The notes under the pieces are model-generated. The model was given only the letters and a program-made list of their open reading frames with translations. It made no database searches and was not told where the DNA came from. A program made the position numbers and the translations under genes. From contig DASPLQ010000012.1 of assembly GCA_035627515.1 (NCBI GenBank), positions 7,269 through 71,268 of the forward strand: a stretch of DNA of 64,000 nucleotides, written 5' to 3'. This document shows, one piece after another, positions 28,557 to 63,436 of the stretch (position 1 is the stretch's first letter; every line of letters begins with the position of its first letter). The stretch is from Vitreimonas sp. (GTDB lineage: Bacteria; Patescibacteriota; Microgenomatia; UBA1400; PJMF01).

Positions 28557-28568
28557 AATTATCAGTAC

Positions 28569-30392: not shown

Positions 30393-30398
30393 ATATCT

Positions 30399-31028: not shown

Positions 31029-31029
31029 A

Positions 31030-31587
31030 CTATCCTTGTAGATTGAATAAAAATGAGGGCTCAATATTGAGAACCTTGACTTTATGCACATCAAAATCAG
31101 TTCGGTATGTCACCACGGAATTAAGAGGAGCGCCAATAATTGCTTGGGCCAAAGGAGTTTCTAATGACACCATTATTTCTTGGCTAGTAAATCTGGTGTC
31201 AGATTCTGCTAAATATGAACTGTCATACGTAGAGCCCACCGTCGCGAAAATTATTTCCTTATCACCGTCTGCAAACTTTATTTCTAACTTCACACGATGT
31301 CCTTGTTTGACTGTGCTGGTATCTAAGACTTCGCTAGCGCTTAAGACTTCAATTAGCGCTAAATCAAAATTCAAACCATTATTTTGATCATGTCGTAATT
31401 CTTGTTCGCGGTGAATTTGATGCATTAAGGCTTCATCTAACATATCTCCATCACCAATATTTCCCATTACTCTCAACTCTTCTCCCATTTGTTTTATTTT
31501 TTGAATATTGGTATCAATGGTTCCCTTCATGGCTTCTACAGTTTGTGGGAAAACCTTAATTTCTTTTCGCATGTTGCTCCTACGCAC
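31030..31587 (-). CDS. GreA/GreB-family (Rnk-like) protein with a short N-terminal coiled coil
   Basis: C-terminal FKBP-like Gre domain (VSLETPLAQAIIGAPLNSVVTY, GHRVKLEIKFADGDKEIIFATVG). The N-terminal coiled coil is shorter than in canonical GreA. Confidence 0.6.
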   Translation of the reverse strand: MRRSNMRKEIKVFPQTVEAMKGTIDTNIQKIKQMGEELRVMGNIGDGDMLDEALMHQIHREQELRHDQNNGLNFDLALIEVLSASEVLDTSTVKQGHRVKLEIKFADGDKEIIFATVGSTYDSSYLAESDTRFTSQEIMVSLETPLAQAIIGAPLNSVVTYRTDFDVHKVKVLNIEPSFLFNLQG

Positions 31588-31760
31588 TAGTTAAGTATTT
31601 TTATGTTCTTTGCATCGTAAAAAATAGTGAGAAAGTTGTCTAGAATGCGACATTTTTATTAAATAAATTTATTTTTACCTCAATAAAAATATGTCTGACG
31701 TTTTATGACAACCTAAAATTGAAGCAAAAATATGTATAAAATTTATTTAAAAAAATAAAA

Positions 31761-31790
31761 AAAAGACGTCTAATAATTGACGTCTTTTAT
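31761..31790 (-). terminator. rho-independent terminator (bidirectional hairpin) downstream of the short TrmB gene
   Basis: Perfect 10-bp stem AAAAGACGTC / GACGTCTTTT with an 8-nt loop. It is flanked by an A-run on + and a T-run on -, so a long U tract follows on the minus-strand transcript. Confidence 0.6.
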
Positions 31791-31808
31791 TAAAGTTGTG
31801 ATGAAATC

Positions 31809-32180
31809 TTAAATTGCCAGCACCTGAGACTCTAATTTTTCAAGTAAACGTGGCAGCTCTTTTTGAAGCGAATTCAGCTCTAAAGACTGCTTTTTGAGCT
31901 GGAGTTCTTTACGCCCTAACAAAGTGTACAAGACAAATGGCCGCTCGGCTCGTACGACCCGTTTATTTCGGATAATCATCTCAGATACCAGTCCTTTTTC
32001 AATCAAACTCTCGATATTCTGATGGACAGTTGTCCGAGCTATGCCAGTTAGCTGGCTTAACTTGAGAATGGTAATTGGCTGCTGTTTCTTTAATAAAAAG
32101 AAGTAGAGCGTGGTCTCCCGCTCAGAGAAACCTAAGGAATTAAAATAATTGTTGATGAGGTATTCGTTCATAGTGAGCAA
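31809..32180 (-). CDS. TrmB-type winged-HTH protein, DNA-binding domain only (123 aa)
   Basis: FNSLGFSERETTLYFFLLKKQQPITILKLSQLTGIARTTVHQNIESLIEKGLVS matches the TrmB-family HTH. Transcribed divergently from the regulator array. Confidence 0.5.
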   Translation of the reverse strand: MLTMNEYLINNYFNSLGFSERETTLYFFLLKKQQPITILKLSQLTGIARTTVHQNIESLIEKGLVSEMIIRNKRVVRAERPFVLYTLLGRKELQLKKQSLELNSLQKELPRLLEKLESQVLAI

Positions 32181-32359
32181 ATACGATAACTAGTAATACT
32201 ATTGTGTGGAAGTTTAGCAGTTCCTTTCAGCACAAACAAATTTTTACATCAAAAAAATGTAAAAATAAGTATATTATGTTATTTAATATTGTCAATTATC
32301 ATTAATTTATTATTTTTAATCTGGTTTTAATGTCTAAAAAATATAACAGTTGTTAATTA

Positions 32360-32391
32360 TTGACAACATATTTTCCACCTCATGGTATAAT
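32360..32391 (+). promoter_or_regulatory. sigma70-like promoter (TTGACA ... TGgTATAAT) driving a leaderless TrmB-family mRNA
   Basis: TTGACA at 32360-65 and an extended -10 TGGTATAAT ending at 32391. The ATG at 32399 is 7 nt downstream with no SD, so the predicted TSS is about at the ATG. Confidence 0.5.
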
Positions 32392-32398
32392 AGCTTCA

Positions 32399-33166
32399 AT
32401 GAAAAACGTCACACAGTACTTAGAACAGCTTGGTTTAACCCCGCTTGAGAGCCAACTTTACTTAGCCCTCCTCGAAAGTGGCCCGACTACGGTTCTACAA
32501 CTTTCCAATGCATCAAAGATTAAACGCGCGACTACCCATTTCAATGTCGAAAACTTAATTGCCAAAGGTTTAGTTTCACAAATTAGCCAAGGCTCACGCC
32601 GGCAAATCATTGCTGAGCCACCTGAAAAAATATTATTACTGTTAGATAAGCAAAAGTATCACCTCAAACAGTTAGAGCATCAATTTCCTGAAGTATTATC
32701 GACTATTCATCAAGAATTACCCCAAACCAAAAACACACAACGACCCGTGGTTAGGTATTATGAAAATCTAGAAGGTTTCAAAACAGCCACAATATTTTCT
32801 CTTGAACACGCCACAGATGAAATATTATTTATCACTAATCTTCTCCAATGGCATAACACCTATGACTCCAAGTATGATCGTGAACAATATATTGCTGAAC
32901 GCCTACGAAGAAATATTCCGCTCAGAGCCTTAGTGGTACCTCAAGGTGAGTATAGCGATCATTATCGATCTCTTGACAAAGAACTGCTTCGTGAAACCCG
33001 CTATCTACCGGTTGACTCAGACTTACGAACAACTATCTTCATTTATAATAATGAAGTTTCCATCATGCTTTCCAACGAACCTTTCACTTCAATCGTGATT
33101 GAAAGCCCAGAAATTTACGAAACGTTTAAAGCCTTATTTAATAGTCTTTGGCAAAAAGCTGAGTAG
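32399..33166 (+). CDS. TrmB-family transcriptional regulator (wHTH + TrmB-C-like domain)
   Basis: N-terminal YLEQLGLTPLESQLYLALLESGPTTVLQLSNASKIKRATTHFNVENLIAKGLVSQ. The C-terminal IESPEIYETFKALFNSLW motif is shared with the RHH paralogs. Start set at MKNV because the ORF-track start would overlap the promoter. Confidence 0.6.
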   Translation: MKNVTQYLEQLGLTPLESQLYLALLESGPTTVLQLSNASKIKRATTHFNVENLIAKGLVSQISQGSRRQIIAEPPEKILLLLDKQKYHLKQLEHQFPEVLSTIHQELPQTKNTQRPVVRYYENLEGFKTATIFSLEHATDEILFITNLLQWHNTYDSKYDREQYIAERLRRNIPLRALVVPQGEYSDHYRSLDKELLRETRYLPVDSDLRTTIFIYNNEVSIMLSNEPFTSIVIESPEIYETFKALFNSLWQKAE

Positions 33167-33180
33167 AGTAGAGAGCTAAC

Positions 33181-33978
33181 ATGAACTTACCTTTGATATA
33201 TACCTTCATGTCTCAGTTAGGAGTTTCCCAACGCGAAGTGGAAATTTATCTGGAGCTACTTAAAACTGGCCCTACTAGCATTCTTTACCTCAGCAAGGTC
33301 ATGGAAATGCCGCGGACTACCATTCATCAAAACGTAGAAAGCCTGATTAATAAAGGATTAGTTATTGAACAAATTATTGGCAGCAAACGTAAGATTGCAG
33401 CGGAACCGCCAGCTAAAATTTCAGCTATTATCAAAGATAAAGAGCTGGCTTTAGAAAAAAAGGCTACTGAGATTGGGATACTTCAAGAAAATTATCATAC
33501 CGTTATCTCACAACTGAAAACTATTACTACGGCAGAAGATACTCCTCAAACAAAGGTGATGATTGTCGAAGGTAAACAAAATATTTCACGGCTTTACAGT
33601 GAGCTCTTGAAATCCAAGCAAATTAAAGCTTACTGCAGTGTTTCTGAAATTACAGAAATTTTCCCCAATAATTTCGAGAAATTCCTCGAGGCCAGTAATA
33701 AAGGTGCCCTCATTTGGGACCTAATTGAGGAAAAGTCATATGACATAACTAAAATAAGTCATTTTAGTAAATATCCTAATTATCACTATAAATTTTTTCC
33801 CGTTGATCTCACCATCGAGTGTATGGACTATTTACTTTATGATGACACGATTACTACTATCCAAGGGGGTAAAAACCCGTCCGCTATCATCATTAAAAGT
33901 CCACTACTTTATAAAAATGCTGTCAGAATCTTTGATTCTCTGTGGAACTTTTTACCTGAACCTAACTTAAATGCCTAA
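33181..33978 (+). CDS. TrmB-family transcriptional regulator, paralog 2
   Basis: MSQLGVSQREVEIYLELLKTGPTSILYLSKVMEMPRTTIHQNVESLINKGLV. C-terminal IIKSPLLYKNAVRIFDSLWNFL. Confidence 0.6.
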   Translation: MNLPLIYTFMSQLGVSQREVEIYLELLKTGPTSILYLSKVMEMPRTTIHQNVESLINKGLVIEQIIGSKRKIAAEPPAKISAIIKDKELALEKKATEIGILQENYHTVISQLKTITTAEDTPQTKVMIVEGKQNISRLYSELLKSKQIKAYCSVSEITEIFPNNFEKFLEASNKGALIWDLIEEKSYDITKISHFSKYPNYHYKFFPVDLTIECMDYLLYDDTITTIQGGKNPSAIIIKSPLLYKNAVRIFDSLWNFLPEPNLNA

Positions 33979-34726
33979 TCTACCTATTCAACACAAACTA
34001 AATTTTACGCTTAATAAAAAATTATATACTGAGTTTTCTTTGGCTGCGGACAAAGCCGGCATCACCAAAGTGGAACTGTTAACAGAATGGATCAATCATA
34101 CTCATACACTGGACTTAGAACCAACAGCATCAACACTAATTGACCTAACAAGTTATAGTTTTCACTTAGATAATACTGTTTACTCCAAACTCATTGATTT
34201 AGCTCAAAAATTTCACTTAAATAAAAGTCACCTCTTGCGATTAATTATTCATAACAACATTTCAGGCTTTTCCCGCCATCAATCAGTGAGGGTGTTTGAT
34301 AATTTTATAAGACATGTTGAGGGGAAAAAAGCAGTAAGTGTTATCTATGATCAACTACTTGAGTCACCATTTTTGAAATCATACACGTATCTCGACAAAA
34401 CATATCGTTATTTTCCTGAAAATTTTGCTAAGTTTGCTCAAGCCGTGAGAAATGGTACAAAAGTTTTTAACATTTATCCTGATACTCAGGTATGCCATCA
34501 AGTAGAGAAGAAATTTCATGCTTTACAGTTAGAAAACTACCACCGAAAGTTTGCAAATATTTCATTGACTAACAACTGCATTAATGTATTACATAACCAC
34601 TCAACTGTGGCATTTATTTCAGTAGCCCCAGTGATTTCAGCGACCATTATAGATAACCCACTTTTGTATCAAAATTCACTCTCGATTCATGACTCACTTT
34701 GGAATCAGTTGCCCGCAAAGCTATAA
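33971..34726 (+). CDS. tandem-RHH + TrmB-C-like putative regulator (251 aa)
   Basis: KLNFTLNKKLYTEFSLAADKAGITKVELLTEWI, then YSFHLDNTVYSKLIDLAQKFHLNKSHLLRLII. C-terminal IIDNPLLYQNSLSIHDSLWNQL. Overlaps the upstream gene by 8 nt. Confidence 0.55.
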   Translation: MPNLPIQHKLNFTLNKKLYTEFSLAADKAGITKVELLTEWINHTHTLDLEPTASTLIDLTSYSFHLDNTVYSKLIDLAQKFHLNKSHLLRLIIHNNISGFSRHQSVRVFDNFIRHVEGKKAVSVIYDQLLESPFLKSYTYLDKTYRYFPENFAKFAQAVRNGTKVFNIYPDTQVCHQVEKKFHALQLENYHRKFANISLTNNCINVLHNHSTVAFISVAPVISATIIDNPLLYQNSLSIHDSLWNQLPAKL

Positions 34727-34731
34727 CCGTT

Positions 34732-35499
34732 ATGAACCCATTAGATCACAAACTAAACATTAAAATTGAACAAACACTCTATAGTGCCTTTTCTCAACTA
34801 GCTAATAGGGCTGGATTAACTAAGATTAATTTGTTAAGACAATGGTTACTTGAAGATGAAAACAAACCTTTGCTTTTAGAAACTCAAGACGAGCAAAATC
34901 AGAGTGTAGCATATAGTTTTTTCCTTGATCATCAGACTTTCACTAAGTTGGAAAAAAAAGCCTCTCTTTTAGGAATTAATACTAGTCTCTACCTGAAGCT
35001 ACTTATAAAAGCTCATACACATCCTGAAACAGGTTTAGCTGTTCAACTAGGTAAACAACATCAGTTTTATATACCAACCCAGTTTATGAAAATATATCAA
35101 GGAAAAGCAGATACCTTGAAAACGTACCAGAGAATACTCAAATCAAAATACATCAAAGCCTACACACAGTTAGATAAAATTTGGCCACTGTTACCAGAGA
35201 ACTATGATGACTTTGCAGATGCAGCGCGCATGGGCACCACCATTCACAATCTTAACATTGGGAGCTTGAATTCTAGACAAAAAGAACAACAATTTAAAAA
35301 ATTAGGTTTCGATAATTATGAGGGAAAGTTTTTACCTTTCGACCCTAAATGGAACTTTGTTGATTTGTTAATTACTGACCGAAAAGTAGCAATTATTCAA
35401 AGCTCGCCACAGCTCAGAGCTATCGAAATTAATCACCACTTTTTTCACAAACATTTATTTATGCTTCATGATTATTTGTGGAGGCTACTCCCAACTTAA
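34732..35499 (+). CDS. tandem-RHH + TrmB-C-like putative regulator (255 aa)
   Basis: Start set at MNPLDHKLNIKIEQTLYSAFSQLANRAGLTKINLLRQWL. Second unit YSFFLDHQTFTKLEKKASLLGINTSLYLKLLI. C-terminal LHDYLWRLL. Confidence 0.55.
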   Translation: MNPLDHKLNIKIEQTLYSAFSQLANRAGLTKINLLRQWLLEDENKPLLLETQDEQNQSVAYSFFLDHQTFTKLEKKASLLGINTSLYLKLLIKAHTHPETGLAVQLGKQHQFYIPTQFMKIYQGKADTLKTYQRILKSKYIKAYTQLDKIWPLLPENYDDFADAARMGTTIHNLNIGSLNSRQKEQQFKKLGFDNYEGKFLPFDPKWNFVDLLITDRKVAIIQSSPQLRAIEINHHFFHKHLFMLHDYLWRLLPT

Positions 35500-35503
35500 A
35501 AGT

Positions 35504-36925
35504 ATGAAAAAGATTAGCTTTAAAGTGAACTCAGATGTTTTTAAAGCTTTTACTGATAAGGCTAAAAAATTGGGTTATCCTAAATCAAAAGTACTGAGGC
35601 AATGGTTGAATGAATTTTCACTCACTGATTCGTTAAGTGTCACTCCACAAACTAACACAGCTGATACAACCACTTACTCATTTCATTTGTCTGATAATGA
35701 GTGGCGGAAACTGCGGACAGGTGCTGAAAAACTTAATTTGAGTCATACCAAACTTTTACAGTTACTTATTACTGATCGTGTCCAGCGTTCTAGTGCTCAT
35801 CATAGTACTACTTTACTAAATAGCCAAAAATCCTCAAATGCTATTGAAGACCTCTGGAAAACAGGTTATTTATTAGAAGCCGTCAGAGAGGGAGATCGGT
35901 TACTTGAAAATTTGTCTCCACGCGATGTAATAACCTTAGTAAAAACTAGTTTGCGGATGGGCAACTTTTCTCACACTCAAGAATTACTGACGTTTATTAA
36001 AGAAGCTAGAGTTATTACATCACAGTCAAATTATTATCCCTTATATTTGGCATATAGAGCTGCGCATTTAATTCGAAACACTCATGATAATGAAACTTGC
36101 CAGGAGTTACTTAACCAAGCCTTAACCATCGCTAAAGTTCGTCGAGACCGTTTGTCTTTAGGGATTATCCACCGCGTCATTGGTGAAGTTAATTTTTACC
36201 TTGGGAATACTCCCGTCATCATTCATAATTATTTACTGTCCCTAGAGTACTTGGACCCGATTGAGTATCCTCTTGATTTCTTATATACAGTGCTGCATTT
36301 AGTCCGCATTTATATTGGTCAAAAAAACTGGCCATTAGTTAATTATTATTTACAAAAAGCAGATGAAATTTTAACCGAAAATCCAAATGCTTCATTTCAA
36401 TCATGGTACTACTTACAATTATCTAGAAAACAACTTCAACAAAACCAGCCCCAACAAGCTCTCTATACTATTGAAAAATCTATTGCTTTGAGCAGTGCGG
36501 TGAATAGTCAGTTTGATCAAACTATTGCCTATCGCGAAAAGGCCCAAATATTACTGAGTTTAAATAAAAATAATGAGGCTGAGCATTACTTTGAAAAATC
36601 GCTGACTCTCGATACTTTTTTGCGTCCAATAGCTTATCATCGCTCAGAGTTTAATCATTTATTTATGAGAGTTAGCAAAGGTGATACTATGTCCTTGAAA
36701 GAGCTTGAAAACCTAGCTCACCTCAGACCTGACCAACTCCCAGTTTTACTAGATTTTAGAAAGTACATGCATGTTGCTGCTCAATACCTCTTTGCTCCTA
36801 ATGCCTCAGAGAAACAAAAAGGAGAAGAAGGTCTTAAAGAGCTACATGCAACTAGTATCTACCCTGGCATGGCTCAAGCTGCTCAAACTGTCTTATTGCA
36901 TCATCGGCTCCAGCCTTTGGTCTAA
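35504..36925 (+). CDS. tandem-RHH + TPR-like putative regulator (473 aa)
   Basis: MKKISFKVNSDVFKAFTDKAKKLGYPKSKVLRQWL, then YSFHLSDNEWRKLRTGAEKLNLSHTKLLQLLI. The C-terminal helical-repeat domain is conserved with 24748-26154 and 38522-39931. Confidence 0.55.
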   Translation: MKKISFKVNSDVFKAFTDKAKKLGYPKSKVLRQWLNEFSLTDSLSVTPQTNTADTTTYSFHLSDNEWRKLRTGAEKLNLSHTKLLQLLITDRVQRSSAHHSTTLLNSQKSSNAIEDLWKTGYLLEAVREGDRLLENLSPRDVITLVKTSLRMGNFSHTQELLTFIKEARVITSQSNYYPLYLAYRAAHLIRNTHDNETCQELLNQALTIAKVRRDRLSLGIIHRVIGEVNFYLGNTPVIIHNYLLSLEYLDPIEYPLDFLYTVLHLVRIYIGQKNWPLVNYYLQKADEILTENPNASFQSWYYLQLSRKQLQQNQPQQALYTIEKSIALSSAVNSQFDQTIAYREKAQILLSLNKNNEAEHYFEKSLTLDTFLRPIAYHRSEFNHLFMRVSKGDTMSLKELENLAHLRPDQLPVLLDFRKYMHVAAQYLFAPNASEKQKGEEGLKELHATSIYPGMAQAAQTVLLHHRLQPLV

Positions 36926-37000
36926 CATTACAGCACTTTGCTGTCATTTTTTGGCACACAGAGACGAACTTGGTATAATTGCTCCATCTTGAAACAAATC

Positions 37001-37756
37001 ATGAAAAAGTTAAATATACGGCTTCCAGCCACTCTTTTCTTAGCTTTTCATGAAAAAGCAAAAAGAAGTGGGGTGACCAAAAGCTCACTTCTCAAAGCTT
37101 GGCTCCGGCGACCAATGCCATTTTTCCAAATTCAGCGGGTTTATTCTCAACAACCTCAGATAAGTTACTCATTTAATCTGAGTGAATCAGAGGCTCATTT
37201 AACCACCAAAATCGCAACTGAATTTGGAGTTAGCGTCAATCTTCTACTGATTCAGGTAATCAAAACCCACACTCAAGATTTATTATTTCCATCATACTCT
37301 AGCCAAATTCCTACTGAAATCGCTTCATCTAGTGTCATTATTAAAGGCAAGGACAACTTTCGTAAAATGTATCTATCATTAATAAATGAACGGAATTTAT
37401 CCATGGTCACAGATGACGAAGCCTTTGAGCAACTTTTCCCAGATAATTTTTATGAATTTATTTATGCTATGAATAAAGGTTACCTTAATATCAGGAGTAT
37501 TGCTATTCCTAATGAAGTTGGTAAAGCCTTCTATACCAAGGCACTGGCAATTTCTCCACAATTTTCTCAATCAAATAAGTTTCACAGTGGTATTCTTCAG
37601 CCTAATTGCCTTGGATATCTCATTTCTCCAACCAAGTTTATTGTTGAACATGGCGGGACTGAACCTCAGGCTACTATTATTACTGATCCTCAGCTGGTTC
37701 AGTATGCTCACACATTATTTAACATGCAGTGGCAGACGCTCTCTAATTCAGATTAA
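37001..37756 (+). CDS. tandem-RHH + TrmB-C-like putative regulator (251 aa)
   Basis: MKKLNIRLPATLFLAFHEKAKRSGVTKSSLLKAWL, then YSFNLSESEAHLTTKIATEFGVSVNLLLIQVI. C-terminal IITDPQLVQYAHTLFNMQW. Confidence 0.55.
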   Translation: MKKLNIRLPATLFLAFHEKAKRSGVTKSSLLKAWLRRPMPFFQIQRVYSQQPQISYSFNLSESEAHLTTKIATEFGVSVNLLLIQVIKTHTQDLLFPSYSSQIPTEIASSSVIIKGKDNFRKMYLSLINERNLSMVTDDEAFEQLFPDNFYEFIYAMNKGYLNIRSIAIPNEVGKAFYTKALAISPQFSQSNKFHSGILQPNCLGYLISPTKFIVEHGGTEPQATIITDPQLVQYAHTLFNMQWQTLSNSD

Positions 37757-37758
37757 TC

Positions 37759-38529
37759 ATGAAAAAAATTAATATCCGCATTCCTGCCTCTTTAGCAACT
37801 GCTTTTCAAGCTCGTGCAGACAAAGAGGGCATTACTAAATCATCACTGCTTCGCCAGTGGCTCCAACAACCGTTACTCTCATTGCCTCTCAATAGATTAG
37901 AAGCTGGTGGTTTTGAAATTAATTATTCGATTCAACTGGAACCATCATTATTTGAACTCTTACAAAAGCTTTCACAAGAGTTTGACTTGACGCTTAATCG
38001 GCTGGTGCAAGCCATTATTCAATACCATTTAACTGCTGAGTTTAATCCTCATCTAAACACACCTTTAGTACATATCCCTAAAAATGCTGAGGCATTTAAC
38101 ATTAAAGGCAAGGATAGAGTATGGCAGTTATATTTAGAATTAATTAAAGATCAACACATTTTTTCAGTTACTGATAGTAAAGCCATAGAGGAGATGTTCC
38201 CAGGAAACTTCTTTGACTATGTCTATGCCACACAAAAAGGTTACCTTAAAGCTCGAAGTATTACTCTTGATAATGAGCCCAGTAGAAATTTTTTACGTAA
38301 TGCCAGTGCTGTTTTACCCAGTTACCAATTTGATCACAAACTATTTTCCACGCCACAAACTCTCAATTGCGTAGGGTATATCACCACACCAAACAAAACC
38401 ATTATTGTCCGCAATGAAGGAGTGCCCTCCGCTGTAATAATGAATAACAAGCAATTAGCTTCATATTCATTACAAGTGTTTAAGTTGTTATGGCAGTCAC
38501 CTCTAACCAAGTACTTAAACTATGCTTAA
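37759..38529 (+). CDS. tandem-RHH + TrmB-C-like putative regulator (256 aa)
   Basis: MKKINIRIPASLATAFQARADKEGITKSSLLRQWL, then YSIQLEPSLFELLQKLSQEFDLTLNRLVQAII. C-terminal VIMNNKQLASYSLQVFKLLW. Confidence 0.55.
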   Translation: MKKINIRIPASLATAFQARADKEGITKSSLLRQWLQQPLLSLPLNRLEAGGFEINYSIQLEPSLFELLQKLSQEFDLTLNRLVQAIIQYHLTAEFNPHLNTPLVHIPKNAEAFNIKGKDRVWQLYLELIKDQHIFSVTDSKAIEEMFPGNFFDYVYATQKGYLKARSITLDNEPSRNFLRNASAVLPSYQFDHKLFSTPQTLNCVGYITTPNKTIIVRNEGVPSAVIMNNKQLASYSLQVFKLLWQSPLTKYLNYA

Positions 38530-39931
38530 ACACCGTATCACATTTAGGTTAAGTCGCTCATTAGCAGCACACTTTGAAGAGAAAGCTTTAAAATCAGGCC
38601 TGACTAAAGCCAAGCTCCTTCGTGACTGGCTGCAAGTGACACCTGATCATTTTCAATTAAGCTCAGTACCCCACAACGATAACACTACCAGCTTCACCTT
38701 CCATCTCAATGCCAATGACTGGAAAAAGCTCAATCACCTCAGTCAAAGCTTAGGCTTAAGCAAAACTAAAGTTCTCCAACTCATCATCAATAATCAGGTT
38801 CAGGGAACACAACCCTCCGTCGCATTGGTGAATAATAAAGAATCGCACATCGATGAAGTTATTAAATCATTGTGGAATCAAGGGTATCTTGATCAGCTTA
38901 AAAATCATGCTTGCAACGATTTGGAATCCTTGAGTAGTGATCAAATTTTCTTGGTCATTCAATCCAATCTTGAATTGGGAAATTTTCACGAAGTCAAAGA
39001 ACAGCTAGCATTACTTAATACCAAGCCGGGAAGAGGTCTTTACTATCGCTGTAAACAATTGATTTGTGAAGCCCATTATTTAGTTCACTGCCAAAGAAAT
39101 CTCTTAACTAGTAAACAAACTATTGATGAAGCAATTGCACTTGCCGAGCAGTTACAAGATCGAGAACTATTAGGAATAACAAATAGAATTAATGGCGAAA
39201 TATACTTTTATAATGATCAACCGGAGAGAGCATTACACGCTCATCAACGAGCATTAGATTATCTGGATCCCATTATCTATCGTCATCACTTCTTGAGAAC
39301 GCTCCTGGACATGATTAAAATTTATATTGGCCAGCATAACTGGCTCATGGCTGAGTTATATGCAGCAAAAACAGCTGACATATTACAACGCAATCCAAAT
39401 ATTTACTTCCAATCATGGTATGAACGCCATCAAGCTCTTTATCACCTTGTCAAAGGAAATTTAACCGAATCATCGTATTACCTAAATAAATCCCTCACGA
39501 ATGTCACTTTATCAAACTCAATTTGGGCTTTAACGGTGCTGAACTTAAAAGGCAAAATTTTGATCACTCAACATAAAACTGCTGAAGCTTCCCAATTGTT
39601 TGAAGATGCCTTCACTTTTGACAGGTTATTACGGCCTACTTCATCTTTTTCCCGAGCCAAATTATATGCTTTATACATGCGCACAGCTGCTCATTATGAA
39701 AACAGCATTCAGGAGTTAGAAAAGTTAACTGAAAGTAATGCTCAGTCAGTAGAATCAAGCTTGGGGAAATATGTGCTTAACACTGCTCGTTACTTATACT
39801 CACCACTGGGGGCGGACCAAATTAAAGGTGAAGCCGGCCTCAAACAATTGAGTAGCGTCGGATCCTATCAAAGTCTTCGACACGCTGCCCTCAAGACATT
39901 GAGCACCCACGAAATCCAACCAGTTTTATAG
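38522..39931 (+). CDS. tandem-RHH + TPR-like putative regulator (469 aa)
   Basis: MLKHRITFRLSRSLAAHFEEKALKSGLTKAKLLRDWL, then FTFHLNANDWKKLNHLSQSLGLSKTKVLQLII. C-terminal repeats include YIGQHN and LRPTSSFSRAKLYALYMR. Overlaps the upstream gene by 8 nt. Confidence 0.55.
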   Translation: MLKHRITFRLSRSLAAHFEEKALKSGLTKAKLLRDWLQVTPDHFQLSSVPHNDNTTSFTFHLNANDWKKLNHLSQSLGLSKTKVLQLIINNQVQGTQPSVALVNNKESHIDEVIKSLWNQGYLDQLKNHACNDLESLSSDQIFLVIQSNLELGNFHEVKEQLALLNTKPGRGLYYRCKQLICEAHYLVHCQRNLLTSKQTIDEAIALAEQLQDRELLGITNRINGEIYFYNDQPERALHAHQRALDYLDPIIYRHHFLRTLLDMIKIYIGQHNWLMAELYAAKTADILQRNPNIYFQSWYERHQALYHLVKGNLTESSYYLNKSLTNVTLSNSIWALTVLNLKGKILITQHKTAEASQLFEDAFTFDRLLRPTSSFSRAKLYALYMRTAAHYENSIQELEKLTESNAQSVESSLGKYVLNTARYLYSPLGADQIKGEAGLKQLSSVGSYQSLRHAALKTLSTHEIQPVL

Positions 39932-39938
39932 GAAAATC

Positions 39939-40643
39939 TTACTTCTCTTCAATCTCAGTCACGGTTTTGTCATACCAGCTAGTGAGCATTTTGCCCACCA
40001 CGTCTTTGCCACCCAAACCGATGGCTAAACCAAAGCCGAGAGCAATCATGGCAATGAAACCTTGGAATAAAATCATGATGAAGTCACGAGCAATACCAAG
40101 CTCTGAAATAGCAGCCATGACACTGATAGTGATGACCATGTAACTCGACACCTTGCCCAAGAGGCGAGAAGCGTGACCATCAATACTCTTAATGGAAGCT
40201 TTGACGACGCTTTCTACCACTCCTGCCAATAAAGTCCCAAAGAATAAGACTAATATGGCTGAAAAGACCTGAGGAATGTATGCTAAAACCTTATCCAACA
40301 CACGCGAAACCGGATCCAAGCCCAAGATAGTGACTGTAGTGTGAATCACCAGCAACATGATCAGCCAATATACGATCGAACCTAATAATACTTCGATTTT
40401 TTGAGTCGCTTCGGTGTGAGCGACAAAGTGCTCAATGGGAGTGTTTTTGACGGCTTTAGAAACGCGCATCGTTTCTAAAATTTTGATGACTACGCGCTTG
40501 AAAGCTTTAGCAATCACTGTCCCAATTAAAAACACGAGCAAAGCGCCCACAATCCGAGGCAAATAGACTGAGAATTGAGCGATCGTTTGCGCTGTCACAA
40601 ATTGAAAGGTGTTTTGGAAGTTGGTGATCAAGGTTGGGTTCAT
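39939..40643 (-). CDS. membrane protein with three conserved TM-helix repeats (MscS-associated TM_helix-like)
   Basis: A repeated unit (..P.IVGALLVFLIGTVIAKAFKRVV.. / ..IPQVFSAILVLFFGTLLAGVVESVVK.. / ..ILFQGFIAMIALGFGLAIGLGGKDVVGKML) resembles the PF05552-type repeat. The family call is made from memory. Start set at MNPTLI. Confidence 0.45.
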   Translation of the reverse strand: MNPTLITNFQNTFQFVTAQTIAQFSVYLPRIVGALLVFLIGTVIAKAFKRVVIKILETMRVSKAVKNTPIEHFVAHTEATQKIEVLLGSIVYWLIMLLVIHTTVTILGLDPVSRVLDKVLAYIPQVFSAILVLFFGTLLAGVVESVVKASIKSIDGHASRLLGKVSSYMVITISVMAAISELGIARDFIMILFQGFIAMIALGFGLAIGLGGKDVVGKMLTSWYDKTVTEIEEK

Positions 40644-56835: not shown

Positions 56836-56962
56836 AGTGTCTCGTAAGCTCTTGAGTAATTGTTAGTAAGACCGTTGCGCAACGTACTCAGTTTTGCACA
56901 ACGACCTCTCGATTCTAAACCTTCTATCTGGTTTTGCCAATCTACAGTGTATAATCGCCACC

Positions 56963-58006
56963 ATGCCTAAAACCTCAACACCAAAAACCAAATCAGCCGC
57001 TGCACATGATCACAGTCATCACGATCACGACCATAACCATGATCATGACCACAGTCATGCTCCTGCTGCGTCTCAAAATACTGCCATCGGCCCTAATACC
57101 GTCATCAAACTGACCTTAGCGTGGAAAACCGTGGAACCGGTCTATACCAAAATCCGCCAGCGCTTAGCTCAACGCGTCAAGTTACCAGGCTTTCGAGCTG
57201 GCAAAGCCCCCACTGCGTTAGCAGAAGGCGCCGTTGGTCAGGAAAAAATTCTCGATGCCGTTTTAGAGCAGCTTTTACCAGCGGTTTACACCGAAGCCGT
57301 CACTAAAGCCAAAAAAGTTCCGCTCACTAACCCTGATATCAAGCCGATCAGTCTTCACATTGGCCAAGACTGGGAGCTCGAAGCTCAAATTGCTGAAGCA
57401 CCAGAGGTTAAACTAGGTGATTATAAAAAAATTGTTACAGAAGCTAAAAAAGAAGCCGCCAAGCAAGTTGCTGAAATAGAGAAAAAACAAGCAGAAGAGA
57501 GTAAAAAAACCACTTCTAAAGATAAAAAGGGGAGTGCTGACACTCAAACTCCACCAGCACCTACTACCCGACCTTTGACCGATGATGACAAAAAAGAGCT
57601 CAATTTACGAGCCATTTTTGCTCACTTGATCCGCACAATCAATCCTACCGTACCTGAGTTGTTAGTTAGAGAAGAGACCCGTCATGATCTGCACCACTTG
57701 GTAGAAAAACTCGAACAGCTCAAACTCAGCTTAGACGAGTATCTGACTCGCCGCGGAATGACGTTTGAACAGCTGTCGGGTGAGTTAGCTGCCACGGCAT
57801 TGGCTCGGATTCAACTGGACTTCATTTTGAGTACCATTTCAAACACCGAAAAAATAGTACCGACCGATGCTGATGTCGAAGCGCAAATTCAAAAGATCCA
57901 AGATGAGAAATTACGCGCCGAACAAGCTCAAAATGACGAGTACCGTCGCTACGTAAAAGGTGTCTTAACCCGCCAGCACACGGTTGATTTTTTGGCACAA
58001 CTCTAA
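56963..58006 (+). CDS. tig: trigger factor-like chaperone with a His-rich N-terminal extension, apparently lacking the PPIase domain
   Basis: TF ribosome-binding signature LPGFRAGKAP, with a C-terminal arm-domain-like region. The N-terminal extension contains HDHSHHDHDHNHDHDHSH. Between the N and C domains there is a low-complexity K/E/T/P linker instead of an FKBP domain. TATAAT lies 7 nt upstream of the ATG. Confidence 0.6.
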   Translation: MPKTSTPKTKSAAAHDHSHHDHDHNHDHDHSHAPAASQNTAIGPNTVIKLTLAWKTVEPVYTKIRQRLAQRVKLPGFRAGKAPTALAEGAVGQEKILDAVLEQLLPAVYTEAVTKAKKVPLTNPDIKPISLHIGQDWELEAQIAEAPEVKLGDYKKIVTEAKKEAAKQVAEIEKKQAEESKKTTSKDKKGSADTQTPPAPTTRPLTDDDKKELNLRAIFAHLIRTINPTVPELLVREETRHDLHHLVEKLEQLKLSLDEYLTRRGMTFEQLSGELAATALARIQLDFILSTISNTEKIVPTDADVEAQIQKIQDEKLRAEQAQNDEYRRYVKGVLTRQHTVDFLAQL

Positions 58007-58169: not shown

Positions 58170-58841
58170 ATGAGTAGCATGGCTCAATCACTACCAAACC
58201 CAGCTAAACGTTCACAACCTGTGAATCCGTTTGCGCGGGCTTTGGCGGAAACTGAGCAGGCTATGTCTGGCCCCTCCACTCAGCCCACCGATGCTTTAAA
58301 TCCCTTCAGTGATGCTTTATCTAAAACGGGTGGTAACTACGATTTTTCTCAAGGCAATGATCAAAATGCTTTAGAGCAACAACAGAAAATGATGGAAGAG
58401 CAACGCAAAAAAGAGATGATGCGTCGTAAACTCCATGATCAAATTAACCCCGTCAACACACATGAGTTATTCAGTTCTCGCGAAAAGAAAGTCAAAGAAG
58501 AAATCGATAAACTCCGCGAGGAACTCAAGATGTTGGCTAAAGACGTGGCCAAGTTCCACAAAGATGTAGAAGTGACCTTGATGACCGAGGTCGTTGATCC
58601 TGGCCAAGATGGCAAGTATTACCTTACTTTCTTCCAAAAGTTACGCACCTTCATCATGTTGTTACGCCAAAAAATCAAGAGTGCTGCCACCTGGGCAACA
58701 CAAATGCACTCCAAAAAGAGCAAGAAAAAGAAACGTAAGGGTGCAGCCGGGATGATCATCGGCGGCGCTGACCACGAAAAGACGACCACTGTCCAAGACA
58801 TGATGCACCACGAGCGCAATAGCCAATATAGTGGTGGTTAA
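58170..58841 (+). CDS. hypothetical coiled-coil protein with a basic C-terminal tail (223 aa)
   Basis: ORF with a Q/E/K-rich coiled-coil region and a KKSKKKKRKG tail. Confidence 0.4.
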   Translation: MSSMAQSLPNPAKRSQPVNPFARALAETEQAMSGPSTQPTDALNPFSDALSKTGGNYDFSQGNDQNALEQQQKMMEEQRKKEMMRRKLHDQINPVNTHELFSSREKKVKEEIDKLREELKMLAKDVAKFHKDVEVTLMTEVVDPGQDGKYYLTFFQKLRTFIMLLRQKIKSAATWATQMHSKKSKKKKRKGAAGMIIGGADHEKTTTVQDMMHHERNSQYSGG

Positions 58842-58999: not shown

Positions 59000-59027
59000 T
59001 TGATAAACGCAATTTCTCGGTTATAAT
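59000..59027 (+). promoter_or_regulatory. sigma70-like promoter for tRNA-Val (TTGATA-16-TATAAT)
   Basis: TTGATA at 59000-05, a 16-nt spacer, and TATAAT at 59022-27. The tRNA 5' end is 14 nt downstream. Confidence 0.5.
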
Positions 59028-59041: not shown

Positions 59042-59115
59042 GGACGGTTAGCTCAGTTGGTTAGAGCGCTTCATTGACATTGAAGAGGTCACAGGTTCGA
59101 GTCCTGTATCGTCCA
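59042..59115 (+). tRNA. tRNA-Val (anticodon GAC)
   Basis: Acceptor GGACGGT/ATCGTCC with a G-U pair, D arm AGCTCAGTTGGTTAGAGC, anticodon loop TT-GAC-AT, T arm ACAGGTTCGAGTCCTGT, and discriminator A. Confidence 0.85.
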
Positions 59116-59133
59116 CCTGATGAGATCACTCAC

Positions 59134-60309
59134 TTAGCCACCTGGTTTCCGATAAATAATTTTACCTGCCACCCGTAATAAACCCCGGTTTTTACGATCA
59201 ATTAATGCTTGAGCTAACTCGGGAGAACCGACAATAATAGAGACATCACTATCATCGGAATCAATGTAAAATCTACCCACATTTTCTAGTGTTGGAAACC
59301 ACTCCAAAAATTGTTCTAAACTCGTCATATACTCACACTGCATGCCCCCTTCAATTTCACTCAATAGTGGTGCATTAACCACTTCTATTTTTCCTCGCAG
59401 ACGAAAATCACTATTCATCTTAGTTAATTTAGGAATCTGGAACGTATGTACATGCCTCAGCTCCACATCCCCTAAACATGTTTTTAGTTCTGGCAAATTG
59501 ACTGTTCCCGGACAATCATTTATCACCATGATGTCACTTACACTTTGTCCCATAATCTCGAGTGATGGTAAAAAAACTTCAGGAACATTCATAATCATCA
59601 TCCATGACACTACGAAACGTAATTTGGTGAATTCTAATCTCCCGACATTGATGAGCTCTAATGACTCCAACTGATCGAGTTCTGGCATACTTACCGATTC
59701 TATATGTTGCAGATCGACGAATTTGCCACTATGAGCCTTTTCAAAGTTGATGTTTACAGGACTCCTCGAAGTTTTGTTATCCATAGCAGGGATATTCGGA
59801 TCTGTATCGGTTTTATGGGCAATCAAGCGAGTGAAAATTCCTAAGTGAGGGGCAGTAAGCTCGAAGTTGTCCGAGGCTGTGACTGGCAATTGTAAATCAC
59901 CAAAGCTCTGCACATTTTTTAAGGACTTACCTAAAGATCGATCCCAGGTTATGCTACCCATCCAAGTAATGATCATTTCTGGCCAATAATTTTTTACTCG
60001 AGCGTTTACTGGCCGGGAAACCAACATTTGAAGATGACGATTTTTTACAGAGTATTTAAAGCTAATACTGTCTTTAAAATCCACATTGTTTTCTACCCAT
60101 TTCTCAGCCAAAGTTTTTTTCTTAGCTTCCAACTCTTGATCAAATAGCAACTTTCTATCCGATAATTTTCCCAAACGGAGCTGCACCTCTGAGACCTGAG
60201 CCTCACTCGCACCATGAGCGAACATCTTCTCTAGCTCTGCTTCAAGGGAATGAACTTCAGCTTTAATCTCGGCTAAAGTTGATTGAAATATCGGACAACT
60301 GTGATTCAT
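59134..60309 (-). CDS. Cys4/5-LRR-like paralog P8 (MNHSCPIF...; 391 aa), second array
   Basis: NYWPEMII, FTAPHL, FLEWFPTL, and the C-terminal ...LLRVAGKIIY. Same architecture as P1-P7 but a distinct subfamily (YWP instead of YFP). Confidence 0.65.
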   Translation of the reverse strand: MNHSCPIFQSTLAEIKAEVHSLEAELEKMFAHGASEAQVSEVQLRLGKLSDRKLLFDQELEAKKKTLAEKWVENNVDFKDSISFKYSVKNRHLQMLVSRPVNARVKNYWPEMIITWMGSITWDRSLGKSLKNVQSFGDLQLPVTASDNFELTAPHLGIFTRLIAHKTDTDPNIPAMDNKTSRSPVNINFEKAHSGKFVDLQHIESVSMPELDQLESLELINVGRLEFTKLRFVVSWMMIMNVPEVFLPSLEIMGQSVSDIMVINDCPGTVNLPELKTCLGDVELRHVHTFQIPKLTKMNSDFRLRGKIEVVNAPLLSEIEGGMQCEYMTSLEQFLEWFPTLENVGRFYIDSDDSDVSIIVGSPELAQALIDRKNRGLLRVAGKIIYRKPGG

Positions 60310-60329
60310 CTGTTAACTATATGCTCTTG

Positions 60330-61496
60330 CTAGTTACTATTCACTCTTCTTATCGTGCCGCCTTCATGGACTACAATATCACCATCAAATACGAGTTCCC
60401 CGCGTCGTTTTTTATCTTGTAAGGCTTGGGCTACCGACATTGACCCAACCTCAAACGAGATATTACTACTATCTTCACCTACTTCTTCTAGTTTAGGAAA
60501 CCAGGTATCAAAAGTGGTGATATCAGTCAGAGTTTTACAACTTATCCCAGCACCCACTCTCCTCAGAGTTCCCGCCTCGACATGCTGAATGTCACCAATA
60601 ATCGTCAAGGTTCCCCTCATATAATCCACGTGGGGAATAGAAAAACGTTCCACTTTTTTCAGTGTCACATTGCAATAAATACCGCGTAATTTGGGAAAGC
60701 TGATTGTTCCCTGACAATTATTAAGCAACAGCAACGTTTCACCAATTCTATTACCAATCATACTCACTTTGGGTAAAGTCATATCTGAGACGTTTGCGAA
60801 CTCACAATGAGCGTCAATACTGGTTAACGAAGATAGATCAATACTCCCTACATTTCTGACCACTAATTTATAAAGAAAGGGGACAAGCGGAGCGCTGAAC
60901 TTACTTAAATCATTAATCGTAATATTATTAATTTGTTCCAAAACTGGTAAATGGAGTTCTGCCTTAGTCCGCGTGGAGTAAACCACTTGTTGTGGTTGGT
61001 CATTGCGGAGTACTTTGAGATCATTGGCAATAAGACTCAAAGCGGGCGCCGTAAAAATTTCTTTATCTGAGTCAGTAATCAATACTTCTAGATCTTTAGC
61101 CCAATTAGTGTTTTTTAGCGTATTTCCACCACTGGAATACCACTTCATGTCCGCCTCAACTACCTCTACAAAATGTGGCCAGTAATCATTGACTTCTACC
61201 TCACTATTGCTTTTCAACACAATAAACTCAGTACCAGCCTCAATTTCCACAGTGGCATGATCTTGTGGTGGAAACTTTTTTTCAGCCCACACAGCAGCTA
61301 ATTCAAAGTTCTTTTCCTCTATCTCTCTTTCAAGTGCTTCTAAGCTATGCCAGATCTCAGTAGCTTGGGTTGATAAGACTTCAAACTGGTCTTTGGACCA
61401 GCCACTGGTACGCATACTCTCTAACATTGCTTCGGCTAGCACCATTTGCTGACGAATCTGGCTCAAGTTGGTTTTAAAACGAGAACAGTGTGACAT
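60330..61496 (-). CDS. Cys4/5-LRR-like paralog P9 (MSHCSRF...; 388 aa)
   Basis: DYWPHFV, FSAPLV, FDTWFPKL, C-terminal GELVFDGDIVVHEGG. Confidence 0.65.
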   Translation of the reverse strand: MSHCSRFKTNLSQIRQQMVLAEAMLESMRTSGWSKDQFEVLSTQATEIWHSLEALEREIEEKNFELAAVWAEKKFPPQDHATVEIEAGTEFIVLKSNSEVEVNDYWPHFVEVVEADMKWYSSGGNTLKNTNWAKDLEVLITDSDKEIFTAPALSLIANDLKVLRNDQPQQVVYSTRTKAELHLPVLEQINNITINDLSKFSAPLVPFLYKLVVRNVGSIDLSSLTSIDAHCEFANVSDMTLPKVSMIGNRIGETLLLLNNCQGTISFPKLRGIYCNVTLKKVERFSIPHVDYMRGTLTIIGDIQHVEAGTLRRVGAGISCKTLTDITTFDTWFPKLEEVGEDSSNISFEVGSMSVAQALQDKKRRGELVFDGDIVVHEGGTIRRVNSN

Positions 61497-61499
61497 ATG

Positions 61500-62672
61500 T
61501 TAGTTATACAGTGTTCCACTTCCCTCAAGTGTCATGACTTGCACAGCCCCATCAAATTCTAATGTCCCAGCTCTTCTGCGGGCTAATAACTCTTGAGCTA
61601 ATTCAAACGAACTCACCGTTATTGAAACCCGAAACTGACTACCAATTTTTCGCAAACTTTTAAACCAGGCATCAAATGTTTTAATATCATTGATGACCTG
61701 GCAATCTAGGGAGCCTCCAATCGTAACGAGGCTATCTGCTACCACAGTTCTGACGTAGCTTACTAACCTAACGTTGCCAGTAATTGTTTTAGTTTGAGGC
61801 ATCTCAAACCTCAGCACATCGTCAAGAAACAGATGAGCAAAACAATTCTCCATGCTCGGCAATGACACAATACTGCAGTTTTTAATTTTTATTTGATGAT
61901 CTAAACGAGGCCAGCCAGAAACCATACCCTGACCTACCGTAATCAAGCGTGGTAGTCTGAAGTTATTCACATGCTCAATGGATGCTACCTCAGAGATTGT
62001 TTCTAAATTTTCTAGCTCAGTCTGATTAACCTGGTCGACAAGCAGTTGTAATAATTGTTTCACCTGAGGCGCGCTAAAGCGTTTCAGATCACAAATATTA
62101 ATCAGGTTACTGCGAATCAATTCTGGACATTCGAGCTCCACTTTTGAGGTGGTGCCATCATGCAACCGAGCCAGTTGATCACTTCTAGTCACATTGAGGG
62201 ACACCATTTCACTTAAACTGGGGCAAAGTATTTTATGATTGTCATACCTAGTTACTAAAAAGGAAAGCTTTCTAATAAATGAGGTGCTTTTAAGTGTAGT
62301 GTCGGCACGTGGATGCCATTTCACTTCGCCATCAACTTTATGAATCCCGGCTGGCCAATATCCCTTAATCTCAAGCTTTTCATTTGTAGAAAGGACTCGA
62401 TTATAGGTACCTACCTCACGAGAAACCACCACCTTAGCTGAAGGCATTATGACTTTTTCTATCCACTCTTCAATCAAGTGGCTGTGGCGACTAAACATGG
62501 CAGCATCAATACTCCCAATTTCATCTTCAAATCTATACAACTCTTCAGAGAACTCTTCAAGGTCTTTAGCTTTTAAAGCCCGAGTCTGTTGTGACTCCAA
62601 ATAACTTTGCAGCTGGGTAGCGTGCTTATCCAACTTTGCCACTTCATCACCAAAAACAGAGCAGTAACTCAT
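61500..62672 (-). CDS. Cys4/5-LRR-like paralog P10 (MSYCSVF...; 390 aa)
   Basis: GYWPAGI, FSAPQV, FDAWFKSL, C-terminal GTLEFDGAVQVMTLEG. 3 nt upstream of P9. Confidence 0.65.
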   Translation of the reverse strand: MSYCSVFGDEVAKLDKHATQLQSYLESQQTRALKAKDLEEFSEELYRFEDEIGSIDAAMFSRHSHLIEEWIEKVIMPSAKVVVSREVGTYNRVLSTNEKLEIKGYWPAGIHKVDGEVKWHPRADTTLKSTSFIRKLSFLVTRYDNHKILCPSLSEMVSLNVTRSDQLARLHDGTTSKVELECPELIRSNLINICDLKRFSAPQVKQLLQLLVDQVNQTELENLETISEVASIEHVNNFRLPRLITVGQGMVSGWPRLDHQIKIKNCSIVSLPSMENCFAHLFLDDVLRFEMPQTKTITGNVRLVSYVRTVVADSLVTIGGSLDCQVINDIKTFDAWFKSLRKIGSQFRVSITVSSFELAQELLARRRAGTLEFDGAVQVMTLEGSGTLYN

Positions 62673-62836
62673 GATAAATCTTAGTATGGAGGGAATTTAA
62701 ACCAATGTCTATAATCGAGCGCACAAGCTGAGAACTGATCTTTCATAGGTAAAAATCTTTGATATAATCTTTTTCTTACAAAAAAGCCAGGTAAATGGTA
62801 TAATCCTGCTTTGTAGTAAAAGGAAGTTAATCTCGC

Positions 62837-63436
62837 GTGATCAGAAAGCGCATCATAAAACGCCGACAGCCCACAATTTTTGTGAAGGCTAATCATCAAA
62901 TTCGTTTTCCCGAAGTTCGTGTTTTAGACGAGCGCGGGGAAATGCTTGGAGTCATGCCTACCCGGCAAGCTCAAGATATAGCATTGACTGAAGGCAAAGA
63001 TTTAGTGCTGGTCACAGAGAAAGCGCAGCCTCCAATTGTAAAAGTGATCGACTTGGCTAAGTTCAAGTATCAACAACAACAAAAAGAAGCTGAGAATCGT
63101 AAAAAAGCCAAAGGTCCTGAGCTCAAAGAACTGCAGTTTTCACCGTTTATTGGTGAAGGCGACTTACAAACTAAGTTAAAACGCGTCTTTGAATTTTTAA
63201 ACCGCGGCGATAAAGTCAGATTGACGGTCGATTTTAAGAGTGGCCGCCAAATGAGTAAAAAAGAATTTGGATACGAAGTATTAAAAAAGATTTTTGAGGC
63301 TACGAGTGAAGTCGCTACCATTGAAACACAGCCCCAGTTTCAAGGTAAAAAACTGACTGCACAGTTAATGCCTGCCAAAAAGCAAAAACCGAAAGAGCCC
63401 GCAGCTGCACCTGAATCCACAGCAAGTGAAGCTTAA
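62837..63436 (+). CDS. infC: translation initiation factor IF-3 (GTG start)
   Basis: IRFPEVRVLDERGEMLGV, plus the conserved C-domain. AGGAAG lies 10 nt upstream of GTG. Operon with rpmI and rplT. Confidence 0.8.
   Translation: MIRKRIIKRRQPTIFVKANHQIRFPEVRVLDERGEMLGVMPTRQAQDIALTEGKDLVLVTEKAQPPIVKVIDLAKFKYQQQQKEAENRKKAKGPELKELQFSPFIGEGDLQTKLKRVFEFLNRGDKVRLTVDFKSGRQMSKKEFGYEVLKKIFEATSEVATIETQPQFQGKKLTAQLMPAKKQKPKEPAAAPESTASEA

Follow-up and report, generated by a model that had tools for sequence, protein, structure and literature searches.

MoxR-like ATPases act together with von Willebrand factor A (vWA) co-chaperones, which capture a client peptide and remodel the client. Pairs of a MoxR ATPase (Pfam AAA_5) and a 'metallopeptidase-VWA-like' protein are represented by the Pfam families DUF2201_N and DUF2201 and by COG3864, and in the Bat operon of Bacteroides MoxR and vWA proteins are accompanied by TPR proteins. 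The subject of this report is a trio of tandem genes, P10, P9 and P8, on the minus strand of a 64-kb stretch of contig DASPLQ010000012.1 (the window, by which we mean the whole stretch analysed). Their products belong to a family of repeat proteins that recurs elsewhere beside a MoxR-like ATPase and a protein with HExxH and vWA-like motifs. MoxR-vWA-centric ternary conflict systems have been proposed (Kaur, Burroughs, Iyer and Aravind 2020, PMC7159879), with paralogous diversification as the proposed principle of sensing. The best explanation of the trio, and one which could about equally prove right or wrong, is that its genes encode satellite binding modules of a shared ATPase/vWA machine.

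The connection to an ATPase is provided by other loci of the family. At a third locus of the same genome three members lie downstream of a tRNA and are followed on the same strand by an AAA_5 ATPase of 732 amino acids (aa) and a protein of 687 aa. A pair 40–41% identical to this one lies downstream of eight members in L084, L088 and L089. In L087 the pair is upstream of two members, and in L090 and L091, a 1.10-Mb NCBI chromosome (GCA_016432445.1) seen in 11 samples, it is flanked by two members on each side. The ATPase gene of L092 and L093 is followed directly by one member before the contig ends, and a further pair lies beside family members in L094. Same-strand members thus adjoin this AAA_5 subfamily at all six loci that carry it (the third locus, assembled from L083 and L002; L084/L088/L089; L087; L090/L091; L092/L093; L094). 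The distance from a member to the ATPase or partner gene is at most a few nucleotides in L087, L090, L092 and L094, and in scans with hidden Markov models (HMMs) all flanking genes proved to encode members of the family that have the N-terminal Cys. The recurrent triad seen in these other uncultivated bacteria comprises an ATPase of 690–740 aa, a partner of 640–690 aa and one to eight members, on one strand and separated by very short gaps, and has the appearance of a three-component system not yet described.

The ATPases share 33–40% mutual identity, and their Walker A (GETGTGKT) and Walker B (IIDEFN) motifs are invariant. The AAA_5 score of the ATPase is 40.7 bits against a cut-off of 22, and its relatives carry the JGI name 'MoxR-like ATPase'. 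In the partner protein an N-terminal HExxH is invariant, as are DxSGS, T and TDG motifs. The partner profile matches the integrin alpha-M I-domain (E 8e-4) and single partner proteins reach the Pfam families VWA, Ssl1 and Peptidase_M48 at E-values of 7e-4 to 0.04. These matches are marginal, but the partner is most likely composed of a metallopeptidase-like domain and a vWA domain.

The triad resembles the ternary conflict systems in uniting a MoxR-like AAA+ ATPase, a vWA protein and a diversifying third component in one conserved neighbourhood. The window itself has neither ATPase nor partner, whereas members adjoin the ATPase at 6/6 AAA_5 loci, including the third locus of this genome. A number of differences can also be drawn. 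The third component here is not a VMAP, iSTAND, FtsH or beta-propeller protein, and it is multi-copy, with two to at least eight genes per locus in addition to satellite arrays. The ATPase, too, is unusual in having about double the length of other MoxR proteins, an effector domain cannot be recognised, and the bacteria concerned are not multicellular but Patescibacteria with reduced genomes. The DUF2201/COG3864 pairs have the same two-gene core as the triad, in which an AAA_5 ATPase precedes a protein that combines HExxH at its N-terminus with a vWA-like metal ion-dependent adhesion site (MIDAS) at its C-terminus, although the DUF2201 models were not among the Pfam matches at E ≤1 for four partner proteins. 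The Bat operon likewise adds repeat proteins to a MoxR/vWA core, but the repeat proteins here are leucine-rich repeat (LRR)-like rather than TPR proteins and are found in large paralogue arrays. The fold class and the MoxR/vWA theme are already known, and the trio taken alone is an old cluster of paralogues of an ordinary kind. Pfam, NCBIfam, PADLOC and the literature searched contain neither the family nor its Cys-capped architecture, its arrays or its pairing with a MoxR-like ATPase of double length.

The trio begins with P10 (61500..62672; 390 aa; HYD34522.1, VD999_00485), which has an exact protein match at NCBI and is detected by the family HMM at E 1.6e-92. It continues with P9 (60330..61496; 388 aa; HYD34521.1, VD999_00480) and ends with P8 (59134..60309; 391 aa; HYD34520.1, VD999_00475), both also matched at NCBI, P8 being 27.6% identical to P9 (E 4e-45). 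All three open reading frames (ORFs) are intact, with intergenic gaps of 20 nt (P8/P9) and 3 nt (P9/P10). The coordinates, starts and gaps of three co-oriented minus-strand genes of 388–391 aa, as described in an earlier sequence-only reading of this DNA, were reproduced exactly. The proteins start MNHSC, MSHCS and MSYCS, and the start codons cannot be moved upstream, since the preceding in-frame stop lies only 1, 1 and 8 codons away; the Cys at residue 4 or 5 is therefore a genuine N-terminal feature. The motifs quoted in that reading are likewise present, YWP as NYWP, DYWP and GYWP, the FxAPxL repeats as F[ST]AP.[LV], the F(L/D)xWFP(T/K)L anchor as FLEWFPTL, FDTWFPKL and, in P10 with K replacing P, FDAWFKSL, and the C-terminal motif as FDGDIVV, FDGAVQV and VAGKIIY.

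The members of the trio are paralogous, with pairwise identities of 24–29% and BLASTP E-values of 1e-28 to 3e-56. A first array of seven genes, P1–P7 (12537..20381, plus strand; 348–376 aa), belongs to the same family but to other subfamilies. Pairwise matches between the two arrays are weak (E 4e-7 to 10), whereas an hhalign alignment of array against array gives a probability of 99.3% and an E-value of 3.7e-20 over 337 colinear columns, from Met1 to the C-terminal cap. An HMM built from P1–P7 only detects P9 at E 5e-16, P8 at E 4e-14 and P10 at E 3e-9, and the reciprocal search works too; the 2,097 ORFs searched came from the window and from 82 further loci, and the P1–P7 HMM hit no unrelated one up to E = 10. 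On this evidence P8–P10 are true, if distant, homologues of P1–P7. The kinship proposed in the sequence-only reading is borne out: the motif order is the same in both arrays and the profiles are colinear across their whole length, as chance similarity would not be.

Members of the family have a fixed order of parts, consisting of a leader, a Cys-x-x-[L/F] motif, a two-helix hairpin, an LRR-like beta-solenoid whose coils, variable in number, start at Y-[WF]-P, and a C-terminal cap with the motif F-x-x-x-F-P-x-L. In an alignment of 26 sequences only the N-terminal Cys and the Pro of Y-[WF]-P are invariant. Cys-x-x-[L/F] is present in 64/64 sampled members, with the Cys at positions 4–24 behind a short and variable leader of 3–23 residues, and the residue preceding the Cys is small (A or S) in 23 of the 64. 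Members are 246–636 aa long and share the same ends; the short ones have fewer coils and match the N- and C-terminal parts of the HMM only. The family has constant ends, whilst its middle varies in sequence and length. All three ORFs of the trio keep every family-invariant residue despite their divergence.

The fold was modelled for P9 with AlphaFold2 from an alignment of the ten window paralogues only. The full-length model has a predicted local distance difference test score (pLDDT) of 90.4 and a predicted template modelling score (pTM) of 0.83, and a model of the solenoid domain alone has values of 90.2 and 0.88. In the full-length model the N-terminal module (aa 1–77, 61266..61496, minus strand) has a 3-residue leader, Cys4-x-x-F and helices at residues 5–31 and 35–74. 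The remainder (aa 78–388, 60333..61265, minus strand) runs from Y-W-P through about eight to nine coils to FDTWFPKL, a helix and a terminal beta-hairpin. The coil consensus is h-x-[LF]-P-x-L, with no Asn ladder. Foldseek searches of the Protein Data Bank (PDB) with either model found no solved structure below E 1e-3; the best neighbours are all LRR or L-domain proteins (LGR4/5, TLR2/3, Roco LRR, NLRC4, SspH1, FNIP and the insulin receptor), with weak scores (E 0.02–0.3, TM ≤0.31). Among viral models in BFVD, a Tupanvirus 'Receptor L-domain' protein aligns to the P9 model with a TM of 0.36. The best BFVD match is A0A6J5P4L1, an uncharacterised protein (418 aa) from an 'uncultured Caudovirales phage', with a full-length alignment at E 1.6e-3 and TM 0.33.

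The family profile reaches proteins with PF01030, PF13306 or PF23952 at E-values of 1e-7 to 1e-21, via the repeat region only. The models and these matches place P8–P10 in the predicted class of LRR-like, Receptor-L-like beta-solenoids. Like this family, the Receptor L-domain (PF01030) and BspA-type LRR_5 (PF13306) proteins are right-handed solenoids with coils of about 20–25 residues and a short 'L-P-x-L' strand, and for relatives in L085 and L090 there are precomputed matches to PF01030, graded 'faint'. However, the Cys-helical hairpin and the C-terminal cap have no counterpart in those families, and their proteins are mostly extracellular, whereas P8–P10 have no signal peptide. No match to Recep_L_domain (PF01030), LRR_5 (PF13306) or any other model of Pfam or NCBIfam was found at E ≤1 for any of the ten window proteins, which also do not display the LxxLxLxxN signature of canonical LRRs.

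The trio proteins are acidic (pI 4.9–6.2), with a maximum 19-residue hydropathy of at most 1.45, and a signal peptide, membrane segment, lipobox h-region and wall anchor were looked for in them and not found. They are predicted to be soluble. A conserved Cys near the N-terminus, often after a small residue, recalls bacterial lipoproteins, but the family Cys has neither lipobox context nor a hydrophobic signal sequence. A lipoprotein reading was discarded on the grounds that the Cys stands at residue 4 or 5 with no hydrophobic signal and no upstream coding room. Also rejected was an obligatory disulfide between the N-terminal Cys and a second frequent Cys (C261 in P9), the latter being missing from P5 and from many relatives.

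Taken together with the triads, this architecture suggests how the family might work. The conserved ends, namely the Cys-hairpin and the C-terminal cap, would form a constant handle which docks to a shared machine, whilst the variable solenoid would offer a specificity surface for varied targets. The machine would consist of the MoxR-like AAA+ ATPase (AAA_5; 690–740 aa) and the HExxH/vWA-MIDAS protein of 640–690 aa. P8–P10 would then be satellite genes, adding three more specificities to a single ATPase pair about 570 genes away, and might act as clients or sensor subunits which are captured by the vWA protein and remodelled by the ATPase. It is tempting to speculate that the HExxH domain clips the leader and exposes the Cys, because the variable-length leader ends exactly at the invariant Cys and the partner has an HExxH domain. 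The target could be a host-cell partner of an episymbiont, or an invader. A more specific version, which is possible but which we would not call probable, sees the family as the multi-copy sensor or client arm of an undescribed three-component system, found so far in Patescibacteria-like bacteria with small genomes, which serves host recognition or defence and whose HExxH domain possibly frees the Cys for a covalent step.

Several points weigh against these proposals. The vWA and peptidase assignments draw on motifs and on marginal E-values (8e-4 to 0.04). Neither ATPase nor partner is present near the two window arrays or near L085 or L086, within the DNA available, and coupling the satellite arrays to the ATPase is an extrapolation from the linked loci. 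PADLOC matched no family member and gave only a sub-threshold mad8 P-loop match for the ATPase (E 0.002), and no effector is recognisable. The neighbourhoods come from only about ten loci, picked by hand. The role of the invariant Cys is a proposal, as are the physical interaction of the members with the machine and their processing.

If the proposal is nevertheless correct, one ATPase/vWA machine would serve interchangeable modules from several loci, the trio included, numbering a dozen or more. Patescibacteria genomes are very small, yet in this one, of 1.41 Mb, at least 14 genes of about 1.1 kb, making up about 1% of the DNA, belong to one undescribed family, and other members of the group have arrays of 8 to at least 15 copies. 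Expansion, a divergent middle and rigid ends make this a strong candidate for a specificity-determining system, which could serve immunity or attachment to a host; for the uncultivated Patescibacteria episymbionts these are two central open questions. Through the recurrent operon link, what were 'hypothetical repeat proteins' become part of a three-component system that can be tested and in which the invariant Cys is the obvious residue to mutate, and for annotation there is the gain of a definable new family.

The main rival holds that the family is a repertoire of surface or secreted adhesins, exported by a non-classical route, which attach an episymbiont to its host, with the Cys serving covalent anchoring or disulfide-linked oligomers and the copies providing host range or antigenic variety. 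Patescibacteria are host-attached episymbionts, the Receptor-L and BspA-type LRR domains which the solenoid resembles are typically extracellular, and large divergent tandem arrays, such as the at least 15 genes of L085, are typical of surface-variation families. However, the trio proteins are devoid of the export and anchoring signals listed above and have no room for them upstream, and an intracellular complex would better explain why, in six lineages, members are so closely linked in operons with an AAA+ ATPase of cytoplasmic type. We therefore consider adhesins unlikely, though deserving of attention.

The genes around the arrays bear on a second rival. Both window arrays are set amid housekeeping genes (trigger factor, infC, uvrD/pcrA-like, femAB-like and pyrH), and there is no ATPase homologue within the 64-kb window. 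The trio proteins might accordingly be stand-alone cytoplasmic scaffolds or adaptors, unconnected to the ATPase and serving, for example, nearby housekeeping processes, with the AAA_5/vWA link confined to some subfamilies. We rate this a little below the adhesin alternative. The N- and C-terminal modules are common to the ATPase-linked members, which argues for a common partner, and the housekeeping flanks are syntenic in relatives without the array, so that the neighbours are incidental.

This synteny was followed at the trio, where the left border is a DUF5660 gene (58170..58841, plus strand; Pfam PF18904, E 9.5e-24; syntenic in L004–L017) and the right border is infC (62837..63436, plus strand; Pfam IF3_N and IF3_C), encoding IF-3. 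The order hypothetical gene (minus strand), trigger factor, DUF5660, tRNA-Val(GAC), infC is kept in ten relatives (L004–L015) which do not have the array. In these the distance from DUF5660 to infC is 204–1199 bp, against 3996 bp in the window. Across L004–L017 the interval holds different, unrelated ORFs of 116–338 aa in each genome, and neither a family member nor a remnant of one was found in any of 80 related loci. The same flanks without the array, together with the differing ORFs, therefore mark the tRNA-Val/infC interval as a variable, cargo-accepting site. The trio is lineage-specific cargo inserted there, gain being more parsimonious than ten losses. In these relatives the tRNA-Val within the DUF5660/infC interval is found on either strand, and the interval is a small hypervariable cargo site.

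The IF-3 beside the trio is 56–70% identical to proteins of Patescibacteria, Paceibacterota and Microgenomates but only about 42% identical to alphaproteobacterial ones. Patescibacteria/Paceibacterota genomes also contain the closest counterparts, in syntenic arrangement, of the IF-3, the trigger factor, DUF5660 and a 273-aa protein (56–77% identity). By this measure the host is a bacterium of the Patescibacteria (Candidate Phyla Radiation, CPR), and the NCBI label 'Vitreimonas sp.', an alphaproteobacterium, is probably a taxonomic mis-assignment.

The variable site, together with the fact that divergent tandem paralogue arrays without export signals are typical of immunity-gene clusters, is compatible with an array of immunity proteins, antidotes or decoys from a polymorphic toxin or other conflict locus, which would neutralise the toxins of competitors. 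This is improbable, since no toxin, Rhs/CDI, secretion or nuclease gene adjoins the approximately ten loci examined and neither PADLOC nor PHROGs returned anything of the kind; the PHROGs matches are at chance level (E ≥0.001) and fall on coiled-coil stretches.

Weakest of all is the view that the trio is functionless cargo in the decaying remnant of a tRNA-targeting mobile island; the array adjoins the 3' end of a tRNA-Val, a second family locus encloses a tRNA-Val (CAC) and the relatives are devoid of the array, but three intact ORFs which retain all family-invariant residues at 24–29% identity, a confident fold prediction, a GC content of 0.408 against 0.413 for the window, and neighbours without integrase, transposase or att-like direct repeat make it very improbable. 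The trio does resemble tRNA-linked genomic islands in being lineage-specific cargo by a tRNA 3' end, at a site whose contents differ among relatives. Unlike such islands, it does not deviate in composition, and neither an integrase nor a direct repeat of the tRNA 3' end accompanies it; its paralogues are ancient rather than recently acquired. Classification as a tRNA-integrated mobile island was accordingly rejected: there is no integrase, att repeat, tRNA-derived repeat or GC shift at the trio, only absence from relatives and a position beside a tRNA.

The number of copies in the genome is larger than the window suggests. Genes identical to those of this genome are carried by the Logan run SRR7003767. 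Exact-sequence look-ups showed that the same 1,409,795-bp contig, from a metagenome-assembled genome (MAG), which encodes HYD34520-22 and HYD35073-76, bears at least four further members, P0069, P0040, P0021 and P0059 (VD999_03315, 03320, 03325 and 03335). They form the third locus (L083:10001-11204 and L002:1-8048) in the order P0059, tRNA-Val(CAC), P0021, P0040, P0069, as read from two Logan contigs with identical genes merged via a 30-nt overlap inside the tRNA. The genome thus has at least 14 members at three loci, and the count of ten members in two loci given in the sequence-only reading, which had itself called for a search for additional copies, was too low. Two of the three loci abut a tRNA-Val, GAC at the trio and CAC at the third locus. 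The largest array seen is in L085 (536-21206; a 91.5-kb Logan contig from SRR12689834), with at least 15 consecutive co-oriented members of 272–636 aa that start ..x-C-x-x-L, and two further members from this contig, P0115 and P0157, were among the HMMER matches.

A neighbour-joining tree of 50 members, all ten of the window among them, separates P8–P10 (92% bootstrap) from P1–P7, in keeping with the distinct subfamily proposed earlier. The third-locus trio is recovered at 99% and {P1, P2, P4, P7} at 81%, whilst a clade of all ten window members appears in 0/100 replicates. Outside the trio, the best BLAST partners of P8–P10 are members of the L084 array, from another organism, at 60–82 bits and ahead of any of P1–P7. 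Each array grew long ago through local tandem duplication, the subfamilies predating the genome. The family is old, as had been supposed, and a recent amplification is ruled out by a maximum paralogue identity of 36%. The accompanying claim that it is still duplicating is unsupported, even the closest pair in the genome, P1–P2, having diverged to this level.

The family is also difficult to find by sequence comparison. Its alignments have no conserved stretch of 7–10 columns, and word-indexed homologue searches are insensitive to it, returning two members from the same genome and repeat-only matches, so that exhaustive HMMER searching was needed. Of 1.84 billion representatives searched in this way 1,690 matched, mostly large proteins matched in their repeats only, and a few dozen proteins of 246–636 aa matched both ends of the profile. 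P9 as a single query gave no match in metagenome or viral contigs, and no relatives of the family were seen among IMG/VR viral contigs. A sequence-profile search of the PDB gave only chance coiled-coil matches and IpaH at E 0.56. No published description of the family was found in the literature searches.

The immediate surroundings of the trio complete the description of the locus. The trio is transcribed towards the tRNA-Val(GAC) gene (59042..59117, plus strand; found by ARAGORN, Rfam 71.7 bits), with which it is convergent, the tRNA 3' end facing the P8 stop codon. The separation of 19 nt reported by the sequence-only reading holds to the last sense codon and is 16 nt to the stop codon. No terminator-like hairpin lies within these 16 nt (59118-59133), and transcription of the trio would enter the tRNA gene antisense, unless the tRNA sequence itself terminates it. 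A consensus scan found a promoter-like site by the tRNA (59000-59027, score 11/12) and two more in the divergent P10/infC intergenic region (62673..62836), one on the minus strand at 62711-62683 (9/12) and one on the plus strand at 62775-62804 (10/12, with TG); the count of such sites does not exceed that expected from shuffled sequence.

Three further observations were made in passing. The L092 contig (GCA_038996935.1, JAWAIS010000017.1) is labelled Candidatus Aenigmatarchaeota yet carries F-type ATP synthase gamma, beta and epsilon genes along with its AAA_5/family pair; it may be mis-binned bacterial DNA or reflect transfer into a DPANN archaeon. The trigger-factor ORF of the window (56894-58006, plus strand) would have a His/Asp-rich stretch (..AAHDHSHHDHDHNHDHDHSHAP..) before Trigger_N if its upstream TTG start is real; this could be an extension that binds metal, or the ORF may have been called too long. 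Elsewhere in the window, at 32360-39931 on the plus strand, eight co-oriented genes resembling tandem paralogues lie inside a low-GC stretch (28000-40000; GC 0.35–0.39 against a mean of 0.41). Six of them encode proteins of 250–272 aa, two with a TrmB-type helix-turn-helix (HTH), and two encode proteins of 469–485 aa with TPR, one with a ribbon-helix-helix (RHH) domain.

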